64,000 nucleotides of DNA from a virus (Duplodnaviria > Heunggongvirae > Uroviricota > Caudoviricetes), in IMG/VR virus record IMGVR_UViG_3300045988_137643, positions 28,377 to 92,376 of that record. One strand, written 5' to 3'. Shown here piece after piece: positions 16,576 through 56,322 of the stretch. Position 1 is the first letter of the stretch. The number at the start of each line of letters is the position of its first letter. Below the pieces are notes generated by a model. That model made no database searches. It had not been told where the DNA came from and saw only the letters and a program-made list of their open reading frames with translations. A program made the translations under genes and the position numbers.

Positions 16576-16701
16576 TTATTAAGCCCCCCTATGTACCTAT
16601 CATTAAACCTTTACACCGCAGCCGTAGGCATTTAGGCTATATCACATATAAGAAAACAAGTTGTTTCAGACGATAATTATATACGCAAAGGGAACTCTCC
16701 A

Positions 16702-17370
16702 ATGACCAAGATCTTTGTGGTTGGCGGCACAAAGGGCGGGCCTGGCAAATCCACCGTTGCCCAGCAAATTGCCGTTTGCCTGAAAGTCAAAAAGAAGAAG
16801 AAGGTTTATATCACCGATATAGATATTCAGCGCACGACAACGAGCTGGTGTGAAGACCGTCGACAGAACGAAGACCTTGAGCTGATTCCTTTTGCATACG
16901 TTCAGGATGACATCATTAAGCACCTAAAATCGCTTCAGGGTAGAGCTGAGTATGTAGTGGTAGATGCTGGTGGCTTCGACTCCGAAATTCAGCGACAAGC
17001 GATGCTGATGGCTGACGTTATCATTATCCCGCTGCGTCCTAAGCGTCGTGATTTGAAATCTTTACGTGACATCGATCCTATTATCGACAATGTTCGCAAT
17101 GTAAACGATAAAGTGAAGGTCCGCGCGGTCATGAACCAGTGCCCGGCTTTGCCATCACAAGTGTCTCGCATTCTGGCGGCTAAAGAGATTGTCGAGACGT
17201 TTGGCATCGAGTCTGCGCCTGTCAATCTATATAACCGCAACGTCTACGATGATGCGGAAGAGTCTGGTCGTTCTATCTTTGAAATGACCGGTAGCGAGCG
17301 CGACAAAAAGGCGGAAGCCGAGTTTGAAGAATTTGTAGATTATCTGTTGAGTCTGGAGGAAGAAGAATAA
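16702..17370 (+). CDS. parA: ParA-type plasmid partition ATPase
   Basis: Deviant Walker A GGTKGGPGKST at N-terminus; 222 aa. Confidence 0.8.
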   Translation: MTKIFVVGGTKGGPGKSTVAQQIAVCLKVKKKKKVYITDIDIQRTTTSWCEDRRQNEDLELIPFAYVQDDIIKHLKSLQGRAEYVVVDAGGFDSEIQRQAMLMADVIIIPLRPKRRDLKSLRDIDPIIDNVRNVNDKVKVRAVMNQCPALPSQVSRILAAKEIVETFGIESAPVNLYNRNVYDDAEESGRSIFEMTGSERDKKAEAEFEEFVDYLLSLEEEE

Positions 17371-17729
17371 TGTCCATGAAAATGGGTGACCTAGCAAAGC
17401 GCAAAGAGCCTGATGCACCGGCTAAGAACACAACTCCTTTGCGCCAACCAGTCAGACCACAGGGACGCCCGACTCGTGGCAAAGAGAAAATTAAAAGCCG
17501 CACAATGTCACTGGAAGACGAATACTTCGAACTGCTGGAGATGATGAAGTTCATCCCTCGCTTCGAGAAATTCACCCGCTCTGATGTGATTCGTGCTGCT
17601 ATTTTCCATCTTGCGGAGAAGACACCGCAGGAAATCGAGGACATCGTGAAACTTAACGAGGCGATCACAGCTGCCGATGTAACGATGCGTACCGATGAAA
17701 TCAAGCGAGAACTCATGAAAAAAGGCTGA
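17370..17729 (+). CDS. Small partition adaptor (ParG/ParB-like centromere-binding candidate)
   Basis: ATGA-overlapped with parA; basic N-terminus; 119 aa. Confidence 0.4.
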   Translation: MSMKMGDLAKRKEPDAPAKNTTPLRQPVRPQGRPTRGKEKIKSRTMSLEDEYFELLEMMKFIPRFEKFTRSDVIRAAIFHLAEKTPQEIEDIVKLNEAITAADVTMRTDEIKRELMKKG

Positions 17730-17922
17730 CAACTTCCGGTCTGGCAGCTTCAATCAGAACCTGTTTCTGTATTTAAATAATAAGTAACTTATTAAATATA
17801 TATACGGAAGCAGGTCTTTTAAAAGACACCCACCAGAACAACTCCCTTCCGTTTTCACTTCCAAAAACTGACACCAGTCGCTATCATCCGCTCATTGTGA
17901 TAAGTAAGTAACTACCTACCAG

Positions 17923-18672
17923 GTGAGCCACATGAGCCAAATCTTTTTCGATACCATCGACAACGACCAGTACGACTTCATGACAGAGTGGAATACCGCT
18001 GTTATGGACAAGTGGGTCGCTGAAAACATTGGTTTGTCGCGCTGTAAAGACGAGGCTGAACTCTTCGAGACGAAGTGGTTTGATTACCGAGACATGCATC
18101 CTCTTATGGCCACCTGTCTGTTTACGGAGGCATACAAACGTCAGTACTCAAATATCATGCTGACGCACGGTCGCGAACACTTTGAAACAGCTCCGTTCAC
18201 CACCGGGTTAAAACGCCTGCCTTATCAGGAGTTGTCGACTGCCAATAAAACGTCGCTATGGAAAGCACGCCAGTTTGCTGATCGCTATTGCTGCTCATAC
18301 GACTACTTTATCTCCACCGTGCTTTCCGCAGCTGCACGACGTCTGTGGGACAAGCTGCCTCGCCCACAGCATTTGTGGCAGCCAGAACTGATTGAGATAT
18401 TTGAAGAGAAATTAGCCAGACGCGCAACAACCCGTCTGGATGACTCTCTGGTTAGTTTTAAGCATATGGGAGACATGCAGTTCAACCCGATCCAGGAAAG
18501 CTATTTTGAGTGGATTCTGGAGCGTTTACGCACCATCCCCCGCAGCAAGCGCATACGCGCAATTTTCTCCGCTATCTGGCTAATGGAAATCGTTCCAGAG
18601 CGCCTTATTTCCGCCCATTTTCCAGAAGAACTGGAGGAAGCACGGCGGTTTATTGATCCCCTATCCAATTAA
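17923..18672 (+). CDS. Hypothetical protein upstream of helicase
   Basis: ORF only. Confidence 0.3.
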   Translation: MSHMSQIFFDTIDNDQYDFMTEWNTAVMDKWVAENIGLSRCKDEAELFETKWFDYRDMHPLMATCLFTEAYKRQYSNIMLTHGREHFETAPFTTGLKRLPYQELSTANKTSLWKARQFADRYCCSYDYFISTVLSAAARRLWDKLPRPQHLWQPELIEIFEEKLARRATTRLDDSLVSFKHMGDMQFNPIQESYFEWILERLRTIPRSKRIRAIFSAIWLMEIVPERLISAHFPEELEEARRFIDPLSN

Positions 18673-53901: not shown

Positions 53902-56217
53902 ATGATAAGCATCGTAAAACGTAACGGCCAAACAGAGCCGTTATCCGAAGAAAAATACAACCGCGTCGTAATGTATGGCGTAGAAGGCATTCGTGGTGTA
54001 AGCGCATCCGCTGTAGCAATGGGAGCTGCGGCCAGCATTTTTGATGGGATTACCACCAGCCAGTTGCATGAGGCTTTGGTTAAATCTGCCGCTGATTTGA
54101 TCTCACCAGATGCACCAAATTACTCGCAGGTGGCTGCCCGCCTGAACATTTTTAAAATCCGCAAAGATGCCTTCGGTTGTTACGACTATCCGAACTTCTA
54201 CCAACACATTGTCAAGAACGTTAACAAGGGCGTTTATGACAAGGATTTGCTGACACATTATTCATTTGAAGAGATCGAAGAACTCGGCAATTACATTAAG
54301 CCTAAACGTGACGATCTTTTTGGCTATGCGGCTACGGTGCAATTGCAAAGCAAATACCTCGTTCAAAACCGTGTTACTGGTGAGATTCATGAGGGGCCGC
54401 AACATATCTATATGCTGGTAGGCATGTGTCTGTTCCAGAATTGGGAAGACGATTGCGCTGGCAAAACACGTATGGAGATGGTCAAAGGTTTCTATGACGT
54501 TACAAGTACGTTCAAACTGTCTCTGCCCACACCAATCATGGCCGGCGTCCGTACTCCAACCCGTCAGTTCTCCAGTTGTGTGCTGATTGAGTCTGGCGAT
54601 AGTCTGAAAGGGATTAGTGCAGCTTCAGCCGCAATTATCGACTACGTTTCACGTCGTGCTGGAATTGGTATTGGTTTTGGCCGTATCCGTGCGCTGGGCA
54701 GTGAGATCCGCAATGGTGAAGCCACCCATACCGGAGTTATTCCATTCCTGAAGCATTTCCAGACTGCTGTTAAATCTTGCTCGCAAGGTGGTGTCCGTGG
54801 TGGCGCAGCAACAGCGTTTTACCCGATTTGGCATCTTGAAGTTGAAAGTCTGCTGGTGGTGAAAAATAACCGTGGTATCGATGAAAACCGCGTTCGCCAT
54901 CTTGATTACGGTGTCATGAGTAACCGTCTGATGTACCGTCGACTCGTCAGAAGCGAGAACATCACTCTGTTCAGCCCGCATGATGTGCCTGATATGTACG
55001 AAGCCTTCTTCACAGACCAGGATCTGTTTGAAAAGCTGTACCATAAATACGAAGCCGATGATTCAATTCGCAAGAAGTCAGTGCCTGCCATTGAGTTGTT
55101 CTCATCTCTGATGCAGGAACGAGCGTCCACGGGCCGAATTTATATTGCGAACGTCGATCATATTAACGAGCATGGCGCTTTCATTCCTGCTCTTGCACCT
55201 GTCCGCCAGTCAAACCTGTGTATGGAGATCACCCTACCCACCCGTCCACTGGCATTTACCGACGACCCTAACGGTGAGATCGCGCTTTGCACTTTATCCG
55301 CTTTTAACCTCGGAGCCATCCGTTCACTGGAGTCTCTTAAAGAGGTGGCGTTCTATGCCGTCGCTGCACTGGATTCGTTACTGGATTATCAAGACTATCC
55401 GATGGAGGCAGCCGAAGTGCCTGCCAAAGCTCGTCGTAGCCTGGGAATCGGTGTAACCAACTTTGCTTATTACCTGGCAAAGAATGGCGTTCGTTATTCT
55501 GATACCGCTGGCAATAAACTGGTGCATGAAACGTTCGAAGCTATCCAGTATTACCTTCTCGATGCCAGCTGCCAACTTGCTGAAGCTAAAGGTGAGTGTG
55601 ACTGGTTTGAGCAGACCAAGTACGCAATTGGTCAGTTGCCGATCGACCATTACCGTTCTTCATTAGACGAAAGTGGCGAAACCAACTTTGAGTTAAAGAT
55701 GCCGTGGGAAGAACTGCGTGAACGTATTGCAAAATACGGTCTTCGCAACTCCACACTGACGGCACAAATGCCATGCGAGACTTCCAGCCAGATCACTAAT
55801 TCCACCAACGGCATCGAACCGCCTCGTGGACCGGTGTCGGTGAAATCTTCTAAGGACGGCATCGTTAAGATGGTCGTGCCTGAGTTTGAAAAACTGAAGG
55901 AACAGTATGAATACCTGTGGGATATGCCGGACAACCGCGGCTATCTGACAAAGGTGGCGATCATCCAGAAGTTCTTTGACCAGGCTATTTCAGCCAATAC
56001 CAACTATGACCCTTCTCGCTTTGAAGGCGATAAAGTCCCAATGATGACGCTACTGTCAGATTTGCTTCTCGCCTACAAGATGGGAGTTAAAACGCTTTAC
56101 TACCACAACACCAGAGATGGGGCAGGAAAGCGTGATGACGACGAACCGAAGAATCCACTTACGCAAGCTGTAGCCGTCGAGCCAGAAGATGAGTGCGACG
56201 GAGCCTGCAAAATCTGA
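53902..56217 (+). CDS. nrdA: Ribonucleotide reductase class Ia alpha subunit
   Basis: 771 aa; long blocks matching E. coli NrdA as recalled (VSQRAGIGI, SCSQGGVRGGAAT, C-terminal ECDGACKI); N-terminal ATP-cone. Confidence 0.9.
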   Translation: MISIVKRNGQTEPLSEEKYNRVVMYGVEGIRGVSASAVAMGAAASIFDGITTSQLHEALVKSAADLISPDAPNYSQVAARLNIFKIRKDAFGCYDYPNFYQHIVKNVNKGVYDKDLLTHYSFEEIEELGNYIKPKRDDLFGYAATVQLQSKYLVQNRVTGEIHEGPQHIYMLVGMCLFQNWEDDCAGKTRMEMVKGFYDVTSTFKLSLPTPIMAGVRTPTRQFSSCVLIESGDSLKGISAASAAIIDYVSRRAGIGIGFGRIRALGSEIRNGEATHTGVIPFLKHFQTAVKSCSQGGVRGGAATAFYPIWHLEVESLLVVKNNRGIDENRVRHLDYGVMSNRLMYRRLVRSENITLFSPHDVPDMYEAFFTDQDLFEKLYHKYEADDSIRKKSVPAIELFSSLMQERASTGRIYIANVDHINEHGAFIPALAPVRQSNLCMEITLPTRPLAFTDDPNGEIALCTLSAFNLGAIRSLESLKEVAFYAVAALDSLLDYQDYPMEAAEVPAKARRSLGIGVTNFAYYLAKNGVRYSDTAGNKLVHETFEAIQYYLLDASCQLAEAKGECDWFEQTKYAIGQLPIDHYRSSLDESGETNFELKMPWEELRERIAKYGLRNSTLTAQMPCETSSQITNSTNGIEPPRGPVSVKSSKDGIVKMVVPEFEKLKEQYEYLWDMPDNRGYLTKVAIIQKFFDQAISANTNYDPSRFEGDKVPMMTLLSDLLLAYKMGVKTLYYHNTRDGAGKRDDDEPKNPLTQAVAVEPEDECDGACKI

Positions 56218-56222
56218 CATAT

Positions 56223-56250
56223 GGTGGGGTGTATCCCCACCTTCTCTTTG
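56223..56250 (+). terminator. Hairpin terminator candidate
   Basis: GGTGGGG-tgtat-CCCCACC then ttctcttt. Confidence 0.45.
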
Positions 56251-56322
56251 ATTTGTAAGCCTTGTTTAAACAAATAAGATAACAACTTGTTTAAACACAT
56301 CAAAAAGCAAAAGGAAAAACAC

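Follow-up and report, generated by a model that had tools for sequence, protein, structure and literature searches.

The stretch of DNA considered here, referred to as the window, comprises 64,000 nucleotides of the IMG/VR virus record IMGVR_UViG_3300045988_137643 (positions 28,377 to 92,376) and represents most of an SSU5-type phage-plasmid of Escherichia coli. A 5-kb probe taken from it is 97–98% identical to Escherichia phages PhiR41_1 and Cyrano and to many E. coli plasmids, and 82% identical to Salmonella phage SSU5; window coordinates correspond approximately to Cyrano 12.6–78 kb. The gene content fits the SSU5 type: tail genes, parA with a small partner gene, a DnaB-like helicase, primase, ligase, tRNAs, an integrase and a CI-like gene, cobT- and cobS-like genes, DnaE, a Rep3-type repA with iterons, nrdAB and thyX. 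Phage-plasmids of the SSU5 type occur commonly in clinical Enterobacteriaceae, and the plasmid collection searched contains about 800 records of them; the group includes pHCM2 of Salmonella Typhi, and pMT1 of Yersinia pestis is derived from it. Some members carry resistance genes (PMC9600943, PMC12217456). A literature search found nothing on the silence of these elements in the plasmid state, on their lytic switch, or on the operators of this phage group. The subject of this article is a short palindrome that precedes parA, the helicase gene, the cobT-like gene, nrdB and a gene beginning at 42786 (gene 42786), and for which the most plausible reading is a promoter-proximal operator dispersed through the genomes of SSU5-type phage-plasmids.

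The original prediction described a 5-bp inverted repeat, AACAA-N-TTGTT, upstream of these five genes, and closer analysis bore this out. There are four exact matches to AACAANTTGTT in the window (16655, 18685, 42758 and 56281), compared to an expected 0.15, a number reached in 0 of 100 dinucleotide shuffles. The fifth site, at about 30349, is degenerate (AGTAAATAATTTGTTTTC), with a single mismatch that gives AATAA for AACAA (AATAAtTTGTT). When the extended form AAAACAANTTGTTT was sought with at most one mismatch, seven matches were obtained at the five loci, with 0.36 expected. The site centres (16660, 18690, 30355, 42763 and 56286) are all in intergenic gaps of the + strand, at 42 nt from the ATG of parA, 26 nt from those of the helicase and cobT-like genes, 23 nt from that of gene 42786 and 37 nt from that of nrdB; the helicase site begins 8 nt past the stop codon of the gene at 17923–18672. 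The motif does not occur equally in coding DNA: none of the four exact sites is inside an open reading frame (ORF), though ORFs make up about 92% of the window, and the other matches with at most one mismatch (15703 and 57340) are within genes and lack the flanks. The features of the window discussed here are given in Table 1.

Table 1. Sites, promoters, genes and repeats of the window, in window coordinates.
Feature	Position	Strand	Remarks
Proximal site AAGAAAACAAGTTGTTTCAGA, parA leader	16650..16670	+	exact core match; position weight matrix score 30.7 bits
Putative parA sigma70 promoter	TTTACA 16610-16615, 17-nt spacer, TAGGCT 16633-16638	+	TTAGGCTA invariant in six divergent lineages
Terminator-like hairpin closing the upstream unit	16551..16570	+	5' of parA promoter
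parA, small Walker-type ParA/MinD-family ATPase, 222 aa	16702..17370	+	Pfam AAA_31, MipZ, CbiA, ParA
ParG-position protein, 119 aa	17370..17729	+	leading candidate binder
Palindromic block TATTTAAATAATAAGTAACTTATTAAATATATATACGGAAGCAGG, 33-45 bp	17770-17815		directly 3' of the par genes
Proximal site TAGAAAACAATTTGTTTAAAA, helicase	18680..18700	+	exact core match; footprint in six lineages
Three-tRNA cluster	25624-25870		Asn-GTT, Tyr-GTA, Thr-TGT
CI-like gene	29432-29818		
Hairpin 5' of cobT-like site	30295-30327		no T run
Possible -10 of cobT-like gene, TACATT	30331-30336		
Degenerate site TAGTAAATAATTTGTTTTCAT, cobT-like gene	30345..30365	+	orthologous sites exact in relatives
Terminator-like hairpin 5' of gene 42786 site	42709-42726		
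-10-like TATTAT, gene 42786	42740-42745		
Extended -10 promoter-like sequence	42741-42770	-	TTAACA-18-TG-n-GATAAT
Proximal site AAGAAAACAATTTGTTAAAAG, gene 42786 (DUF1281_C)	42753..42773	+	
Iterons CCGCTGNNAGCATA, twelve	46438-46969		
Rep3-type repA	46970-48184	-	
Iterons CCGCTGNNAGCATA, three	48086-48185		
GATC-rich GGATCTAT repeats	~48245-48300		
Terminator-like hairpin 5' of nrdB site	56223-56241		
Proximal site AAGATAACAACTTGTTTAAAC, between nrdA and nrdB	56276..56296	+	nrdB ATG at 56323
TAAGTAnnTACTTA motif	1889, 8801, 13684, 17901, 21335, 24857, 27794		
TAAGTAnnTACTTA motif	32508, 38091, 41605, 45650, 49154, 53838, 58554, also 29850-29863		

Comparison was made with four complete relatives (Cyrano, SSU5, Klebsiella phage pJN2-26 and Y. 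pestis pMT1), and with more divergent members in the form of partial contigs. By the depositors' annotation, the exact sites are intergenic in 12 of 12 cases in Cyrano, 13 of 13 in SSU5 and 10 of 11 in pJN2-26, and the sole exception among these 36 is within a dubious 58-aa ORF. Crude ORF calling had placed some of the relatives' sites in coding DNA; these ORFs, when compared to the annotation, proved to be over-extended or spurious. A position weight matrix finds 20–25 sites in each complete relative, essentially all of them intergenic and 5' of genes. Most precede small genes of unknown function in the 80–98 kb "early" region, outside the window; the remainder precede terS (two sites, 25 bp apart), parA, the helicase gene, the cobT-like gene and nrdB. 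The 5-bp arms first described are a real core, but the conserved unit is longer, occurs in two orientations and has most of its copies outside the window. The full site, AGAAAACAA-N-TTGTTT(A/T)(A/C), is a near-palindrome of 17–21 bp, and alignment of 24 promoter-proximal sites gives the conserved unit AAGAAAACAA-N-TTGTTTAAGG.

The 24 aligned promoter-proximal sites read ..gCCTTTT..TG-c-GATAAT-aacaCCAAcAAG-AAAACAAnTTGTTTAA-GGAG, and the early-gene copies are preceded at a fixed distance by ..gCCTTTT..TG-c-GATAAT-aacaCCAAc. From its sequence, this upstream element appears to be an extended -10 sigma70 promoter (TG-n-(T/G)ATAAT). Transcription would begin about 7 nt past GATAAT, and the proximal site would then occupy approximately +6 to +22. 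The same geometry is predicted for parA, in which the site begins 12 nt 3' of the conserved TAGGCT and would lie at approximately +6 to +26 of TTTACA-17-TAGGCT. A -10-like hexamer at a similar distance is plausible for gene 42786 (TATTAT) and cobT (TACATT). Three of the window sites, those of parA, gene 42786 and nrdB, are preceded by a terminator-like hairpin. The polarity of the proximal sites is constant, with AGAAAACAA always on the 5' side, and they are always found between the putative promoter or start and the Shine-Dalgarno sequence (SD), which they often abut (TTGTTTAAGGAG). On the minus strand there is a strong-looking extended -10 promoter with its -35 inside the site before gene 42786; this may be an antisense promoter or a mere reflection of the palindromic region.

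A second class of sites is the exact reverse complement of the first, CCTTAAACAA-N-TTGTTTTCT (CCTTAAACAAnTTGTTTTCT), scoring 26–30 bits on the opposite strand. In the promoters that have both classes, the two centres are exactly 51 bp apart (5 of 5 pairs), which is about five turns of the helix. The inverted upstream copy would be centred near -38, over the -35 region, and in each copy the full 9-nt half (AGAAAACAA) faces the promoter core. Some promoters carry the upstream copy only. In the CYRAN_108-type promoter such a copy is situated 3' of a canonical terminator, consisting of a hairpin and a T run, and 5' of the -10, and therefore no transcription is expected to enter it from either side. 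Its arms are kept in Cyrano, SSU5, pJN2-26, pMT1 and three divergent metagenomic or genomic contigs, and the central base in these approximately seven genomes is T, A, G, A, C, T or A.

Orthologous sites are present at parA, the helicase gene, the cobT-like gene, nrdB and terS in all of the Enterobacteriaceae and Yersinia relatives examined, while the intergenic sequence around them diverges. From E. coli, Salmonella, Klebsiella and Yersinia to the metagenomic relatives, the arms never change and the central base is unconstrained. When the sequences upstream of parA from six divergent lineages are aligned, the sole invariant blocks are TTAGGCTA, in the putative promoter, and ATAAGAAAACA..TTGTTT, in the proximal site; in the corresponding helicase gap the main conserved block is GAAAACAAnTT.TTTA (six lineages). 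The cobT-like site that is degenerate in the window is exact in SSU5 (42730), pJN2-26 (91041) and pMT1 (89260), and the nrdB site has its orthologs at Cyrano 70327, SSU5 70220 and pJN2-26 7466/7491. An 18-mer scan of IMG/VR gave more than 119 loci, and SSU5-like genomes cover these at the nucleotide level to a median of 80%; the few unrelated loci had single matches in a coding-like context. On these sequence comparisons the motif is a hallmark of the SSU5 supergroup. The one clear exception among relatives is a distant, syntenic SSU5-like phage-plasmid of Moellerella wisconsensis (Morganellaceae; NZ_CP093251.1), from which the motif is missing save for a remnant, AAGAAAACAATATATTT, upstream of parA.

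Conservation of this kind could also arise with no dedicated trans-acting factor, if a promoter and leader cassette, composed of an A-rich transcribed region and the leader, had been duplicated and spread by recombination, its sequence being conserved by descent or for promoter or ribosome function. Many of the early-gene copies clearly belong to paralogous modules some 70 bp long. The A-rich half, AAGAAAA(A)CAA, is found by itself in several modules of the Klebsiella plasmid hvKP859 and in Moellerella, the early leaders of which retain the A-rich AAGAAAAACAA and lack the TTGTTT arm. However, the parA, helicase, cobT and nrdB sites have only the palindrome in common with the cassette. Nor would a cassette be expected to let the central base vary freely with both arms fixed, or to place inverted copies at a second fixed position, and a function confined to the leader leaves the TTGTTT arm and the palindrome unexplained. 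Spread of a cassette is thus considered very improbable as the explanation of the motif.

Expression of the genes behind the sites has been recorded in an E. coli LF82 lysogen with Cyrano as its plasmid prophage, in which the background median is 9.8 normalised reads (PMC9928086, S1 Table); these data come from a 97%-identical relative rather than from this exact element. Most of the genes are at or near background: terS 7.1, cobT 7.8, CYRAN_58 5.7, nrdB 12.9, CYRAN_85 7.0, CYRAN_87 7.1, CYRAN_101 7.5, CYRAN_105 12.8, CYRAN_106 12.2 and CYRAN_110 6.7, with CYRAN_111 (25.5) and the helicase (21) the highest (PMC9928086). The exception to this range of 5.7–25 is parAB, with 49.8 for parA and 89 for the gene in the ParG position, both above background (PMC9928086). 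The early-module promoters look strong and constitutive, and they are without the other dispersed motif of these elements, TAAGTAnnTACTTA. That they are nevertheless silent therefore points to a repressor present in the lysogen and acting through the site. It had been proposed that the motif defines a plasmid-maintenance regulon. Given this silence, and the 20–25 sites per relative, most of them before small early genes, the regulon is instead mainly one of early, replication and nucleotide genes, and the site most likely serves to silence lytic, early and replication functions; parAB is its one expressed member, presumably autoregulated.

Taken together, the enrichment of the palindrome, its intergenic and promoter-proximal placement and the footprint kept in divergent relatives uphold the earlier description of an operator-like site common to several transcription units, and we place the probability that the motif is a cis-acting site of the operator type at about 80%. 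In the mechanism that we favor, a phage-encoded DNA-binding protein, a dimer or a dimer of dimers, would be present in the plasmid-prophage state and occupy the sites, where it would block initiation or early elongation. Approximately 20–25 units would thereby be held silent, among them the small early genes, the helicase gene, the cobT-like gene, nrdB and terS, and through autoregulation the same protein would set the level of its own parAB operon. The protein in the ParG position would be this binder, acting in the manner of omega of pSM19035 or KorB of RK2, partition proteins that also serve as global repressors.

Recognition of the site as double-stranded DNA is probable. Exact symmetry together with a free central base is the pattern expected when a symmetric protein reads duplex DNA, and the same conclusion is favored by the occurrence of inverted copies at another fixed position, by the 51-bp phasing and by the upstream-only copies, which are not expected to be transcribed. 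A hairpin or riboregulator in the RNA was rejected: the predicted folds of the five window leaders are no more stable than those of shuffled sequences (z from -0.6 to +1.0), the palindrome is outside their minimum-energy fold, and there is no covariation, since variant sites break the potential pairing with no compensating changes.

The original prediction had named the small protein encoded beside parA as a possible regulator. As a candidate it is defensible, with invariant putative reading motifs and a site in its own promoter. We regard it tentatively as the most likely binder. Homologs are found only in SSU5-like elements, and three segments, MGDLAK, RPQGRPTRGK..IKSRTMS.EDE and FTRSDVIRAAI, remain fully identical in homologs with as little as 48% overall identity; these are present in the hvKP859 plasmid, in which the motif is unchanged, and nearly so in the Moellerella relative, which keeps the head of the protein along with the remnant site upstream of parA. 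Its candidacy stems from this match between invariant protein motifs and an invariant site, from the site in its own promoter and from its expression in the lysogen. Should the partition protein prove to be the binder, a single protein would link the segregation of the plasmid to the repression of lytic genes.

Several observations weigh against this reading. The ribbon-helix-helix (RHH) fold is suggested by a sequence pattern, KSRTMSLEDEY..FTRSDVIRAAI, compatible with it by eye only. The 99%-identical Cyrano ortholog, CYRAN_29, has no Pfam match, a profile search against the PDB gave chance matches only, and the AlphaFold2 monomer has a low mean confidence (pLDDT 63.5), with residues 1–47 disordered and helices thereafter. 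Known centromere-binding proteins of type Ib systems use repeat arrays adjoining par, and here there is one palindrome upstream of parA. A search for centromere-like half-site arrays found none, with at most 3–5 half-sites per 150 bp anywhere and the palindromes single and scattered. The palindromic block TATTTAAATAATAAGTAACTTATTAAATATATATACGGAAGCAGG, a second copy of the virion-genome-end sequence found upstream of terS in Cyrano, SSU5, pJN2-26 and pMT1, could be the true centromere, or a packaging- or terminus-related site. In the Moellerella plasmid the ParG-like protein is present and sites are missing everywhere but at parA, and pMT1 lacks the gene yet keeps seven sites, a counter-case that is weak because pMT1 is a young and degenerate derivative. 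As to the promoters, the helicase, cobT and nrdB genes have no convincing -10 at the module distance in the window, the helicase and nrdB being the weakest. Finally, the constant polarity of the proximal sites and their placement between promoter and SD would also suit a target at the level of RNA.

The last of these points bears on a protein of the FljA family (PF03614), of the CYRAN_114 type and encoded outside the window, which may bind the site in the 5' untranslated region of the mRNA, block the ribosome and trigger decay. The CYRAN_114-type protein is a full-length member of the family (PF03614, E 1e-80) and is expressed in the lysogen, and decay of the mRNA would give the same silent read-out as repression. 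FljA is reported to prevent the translation of fliC mRNA (PMC2652032). In these phage-plasmids the target would likewise be in the leader just 5' of the SD, and the core of the motif, CAAGTTGT, is common to the fliC leader of Salmonella and Citrobacter, where it is 9 nt before the SD, with a chance probability of about 0.004 per leader. The phyletic pattern of the FljA-like gene fits best of all: it is in every motif-bearing genome (SSU5, pJN2-26, pMT1, the divergent L022–L024 and hvKP859) and is absent from the motif-less Moellerella relative. It is also kept in 341 Klebsiella plasmids. Klebsiella is non-motile and has no flagellin, and the retention of the gene there therefore demands a target other than flagellin.

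Against an FljA-type binder, an exact palindrome is meaningless to a protein that binds a single strand, and the RNA hairpin is unstable. The inverted copies near -38, including the family situated beyond a terminator and before the promoter, are as well conserved as the others, yet no RNA is expected from them. In hvKP859 the FljA-like protein is only 37% identical and has lost the family-invariant EVWPRDY, with the motif unchanged. The fliC leader of E. coli, also a target of FljA (PMC2652032), has CAACGACTTGC and not CAAnTTGT. The structure model of the FljA-like protein consists of two tandem Hfq-like domains and has no DNA-binding domain; such an Sm-like fold explains neither the DNA palindrome nor the copies that are not expected to be transcribed, although the protein might possibly bind the DNA as well. 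FljA of Salmonella, moreover, has a single known target, acts on RNA, and has neither a palindrome nor an upstream DNA copy. We consider an FljA-family binder unlikely. If it were the binder, it would be a global silencer of some 20–25 phage transcripts or promoters, with Salmonella FljA and fliC as a domesticated offshoot, a proposal that is equally doubtful.

If the site is a DNA operator, as we favor, its ligand may still be a protein other than the one in the ParG position. Phage-encoded candidates are the winged-helix-like proteins of the CYRAN_123, CYRAN_37 and CYRAN_113 types and the RHH-like CYRAN_117; the other possibility is a conserved host factor of the Enterobacteriaceae. Close to clusters of sites there are several genes for small conserved proteins of unknown function, that of CYRAN_123 directly 5' of the double site of terS. 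However, CYRAN_123, CYRAN_37 and CYRAN_113 are at background in the lysogen, when the target genes are silent, and CYRAN_123 and CYRAN_113 are present in the motif-less Moellerella plasmid. CYRAN_117 is an unlikely binder, in that its beta-strand, the reading strand, varies among genomes with an unchanged motif. A host protein would suit a site that remains the same in different hosts and in phage lineages with candidate regulators that differ by 40–60%, and it would suit the absence of the site in the one relative from the Morganellaceae. To our knowledge, no regulator of E. coli has such a consensus, and none of the IHF, Fis, CusR, KdgR, Zur, PhoP and parS/KorB boxes, the T4 MotA box or the T4 RegA site matches. 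Overall, another DNA-binding protein, from phage or host, seems rather unlikely.

The architecture is of a known kind, one in which a single protein holds many operons down through one short dispersed operator. One close likeness is to omega of pSM19035 (inc18) and ParG of TP228. In these systems too a small protein gene directly follows that of a small Walker-type ParA and the operator is in the par promoter; the converging 7-nt units here (AAAACAA > < TTGTTTT) resemble paired omega heptads, and omega controls several operons, for copy number, partition and toxin-antitoxin. In contrast, omega and ParG use arrays of 4–10 repeats at few promoters, while the sites here are single palindromes at some 20–25 scattered promoters, mostly of lytic or early genes, and the RHH fold of the protein is only putative. 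In RK2/RP4 with KorB and KorA, and in N15 with SopB, a partition-type protein or a small repressor acts through one palindrome at many promoters, and the centromere sites of N15 are scattered in phage regions. KorB and SopB, however, are ParB-family helix-turn-helix proteins of type Ia systems, unrelated in sequence to the candidate here, and the 13-bp OB site of KorB can act at a distance, whereas the position here is tightly promoter-proximal (about +13 and about -38). P1, also a phage-plasmid, has 17-bp operators dispersed throughout its genome and many operons silent in the plasmid prophage. C1 binds these asymmetric operators (ATTGCTCTAATAAATTT); the site described here has another sequence and stands beside a second motif, TAAGTAnnTACTTA. 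Compared to all of these systems, the AACAA-N-TTGTT site is a true 8+1+8 palindrome with a sequence of its own.

The second dispersed palindrome, TAAGTAnnTACTTA, is the commoner of the two, with the best form GATAGGTAAGTACTTACCTATC and, at up to two mismatches, 25 matches in the window compared to 1.65 expected. No intergenic gap contains both this motif and the operator-type one, and neighboring genes of the same pathway alternate between the two, as in nrdA and nrdB or cobS and cobT. It is conserved as far as the Moellerella plasmid, an element that also carries a fimbrial operon and umuDC. A copy, GGTAAGTGCTTACC, is found about 30 nt upstream of the CI-like gene, the promoter of which carries the core of the motif, GGTAAGTnCTTACC, and TAAGTAnnTACTTA is therefore probably the operator of the CI-like repressor. 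This repressor, which the original prediction had also named, is unlikely to act on the AACAA-N-TTGTT motif: the protein is absent from SSU5 and is 56–65% identical elsewhere (56% in pJN2-26) with the motif unchanged, and its own promoter has the other motif. The outcome is a regulatory map in which two disjoint dispersed motifs partition nearly all promoters, together with a short list of candidate regulators for the 21-bp site.

Another repressor candidate, the LexA-like S24 protein of Cyrano, was dropped as a cleavable repressor, since it resembles UmuD in having an S24 domain alone, and its gene is preceded by a LexA box. The box, TACTGTATGTGTATACAGTA, is perfect and is outside the window, at Cyrano 89270–89300 (L002 39270–39300), 5' of the UmuD-like gene CYRAN_98; this S24-peptidase gene is expressed in the lysogen. 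Within the window, sites resembling the sigma70 consensus promoter are rarer than in shuffled sequence, 13 compared to 32.7 in 15000–34000 and 19 compared to 28.2 in 40000–58000. The Rep3-type repA is flanked on both sides by iterons and, with these and the adjacent GATC-rich repeats, constitutes the plasmid replication origin region. The three-tRNA cluster of the window corresponds to genes annotated in Cyrano as Asn, Thr and Ser.

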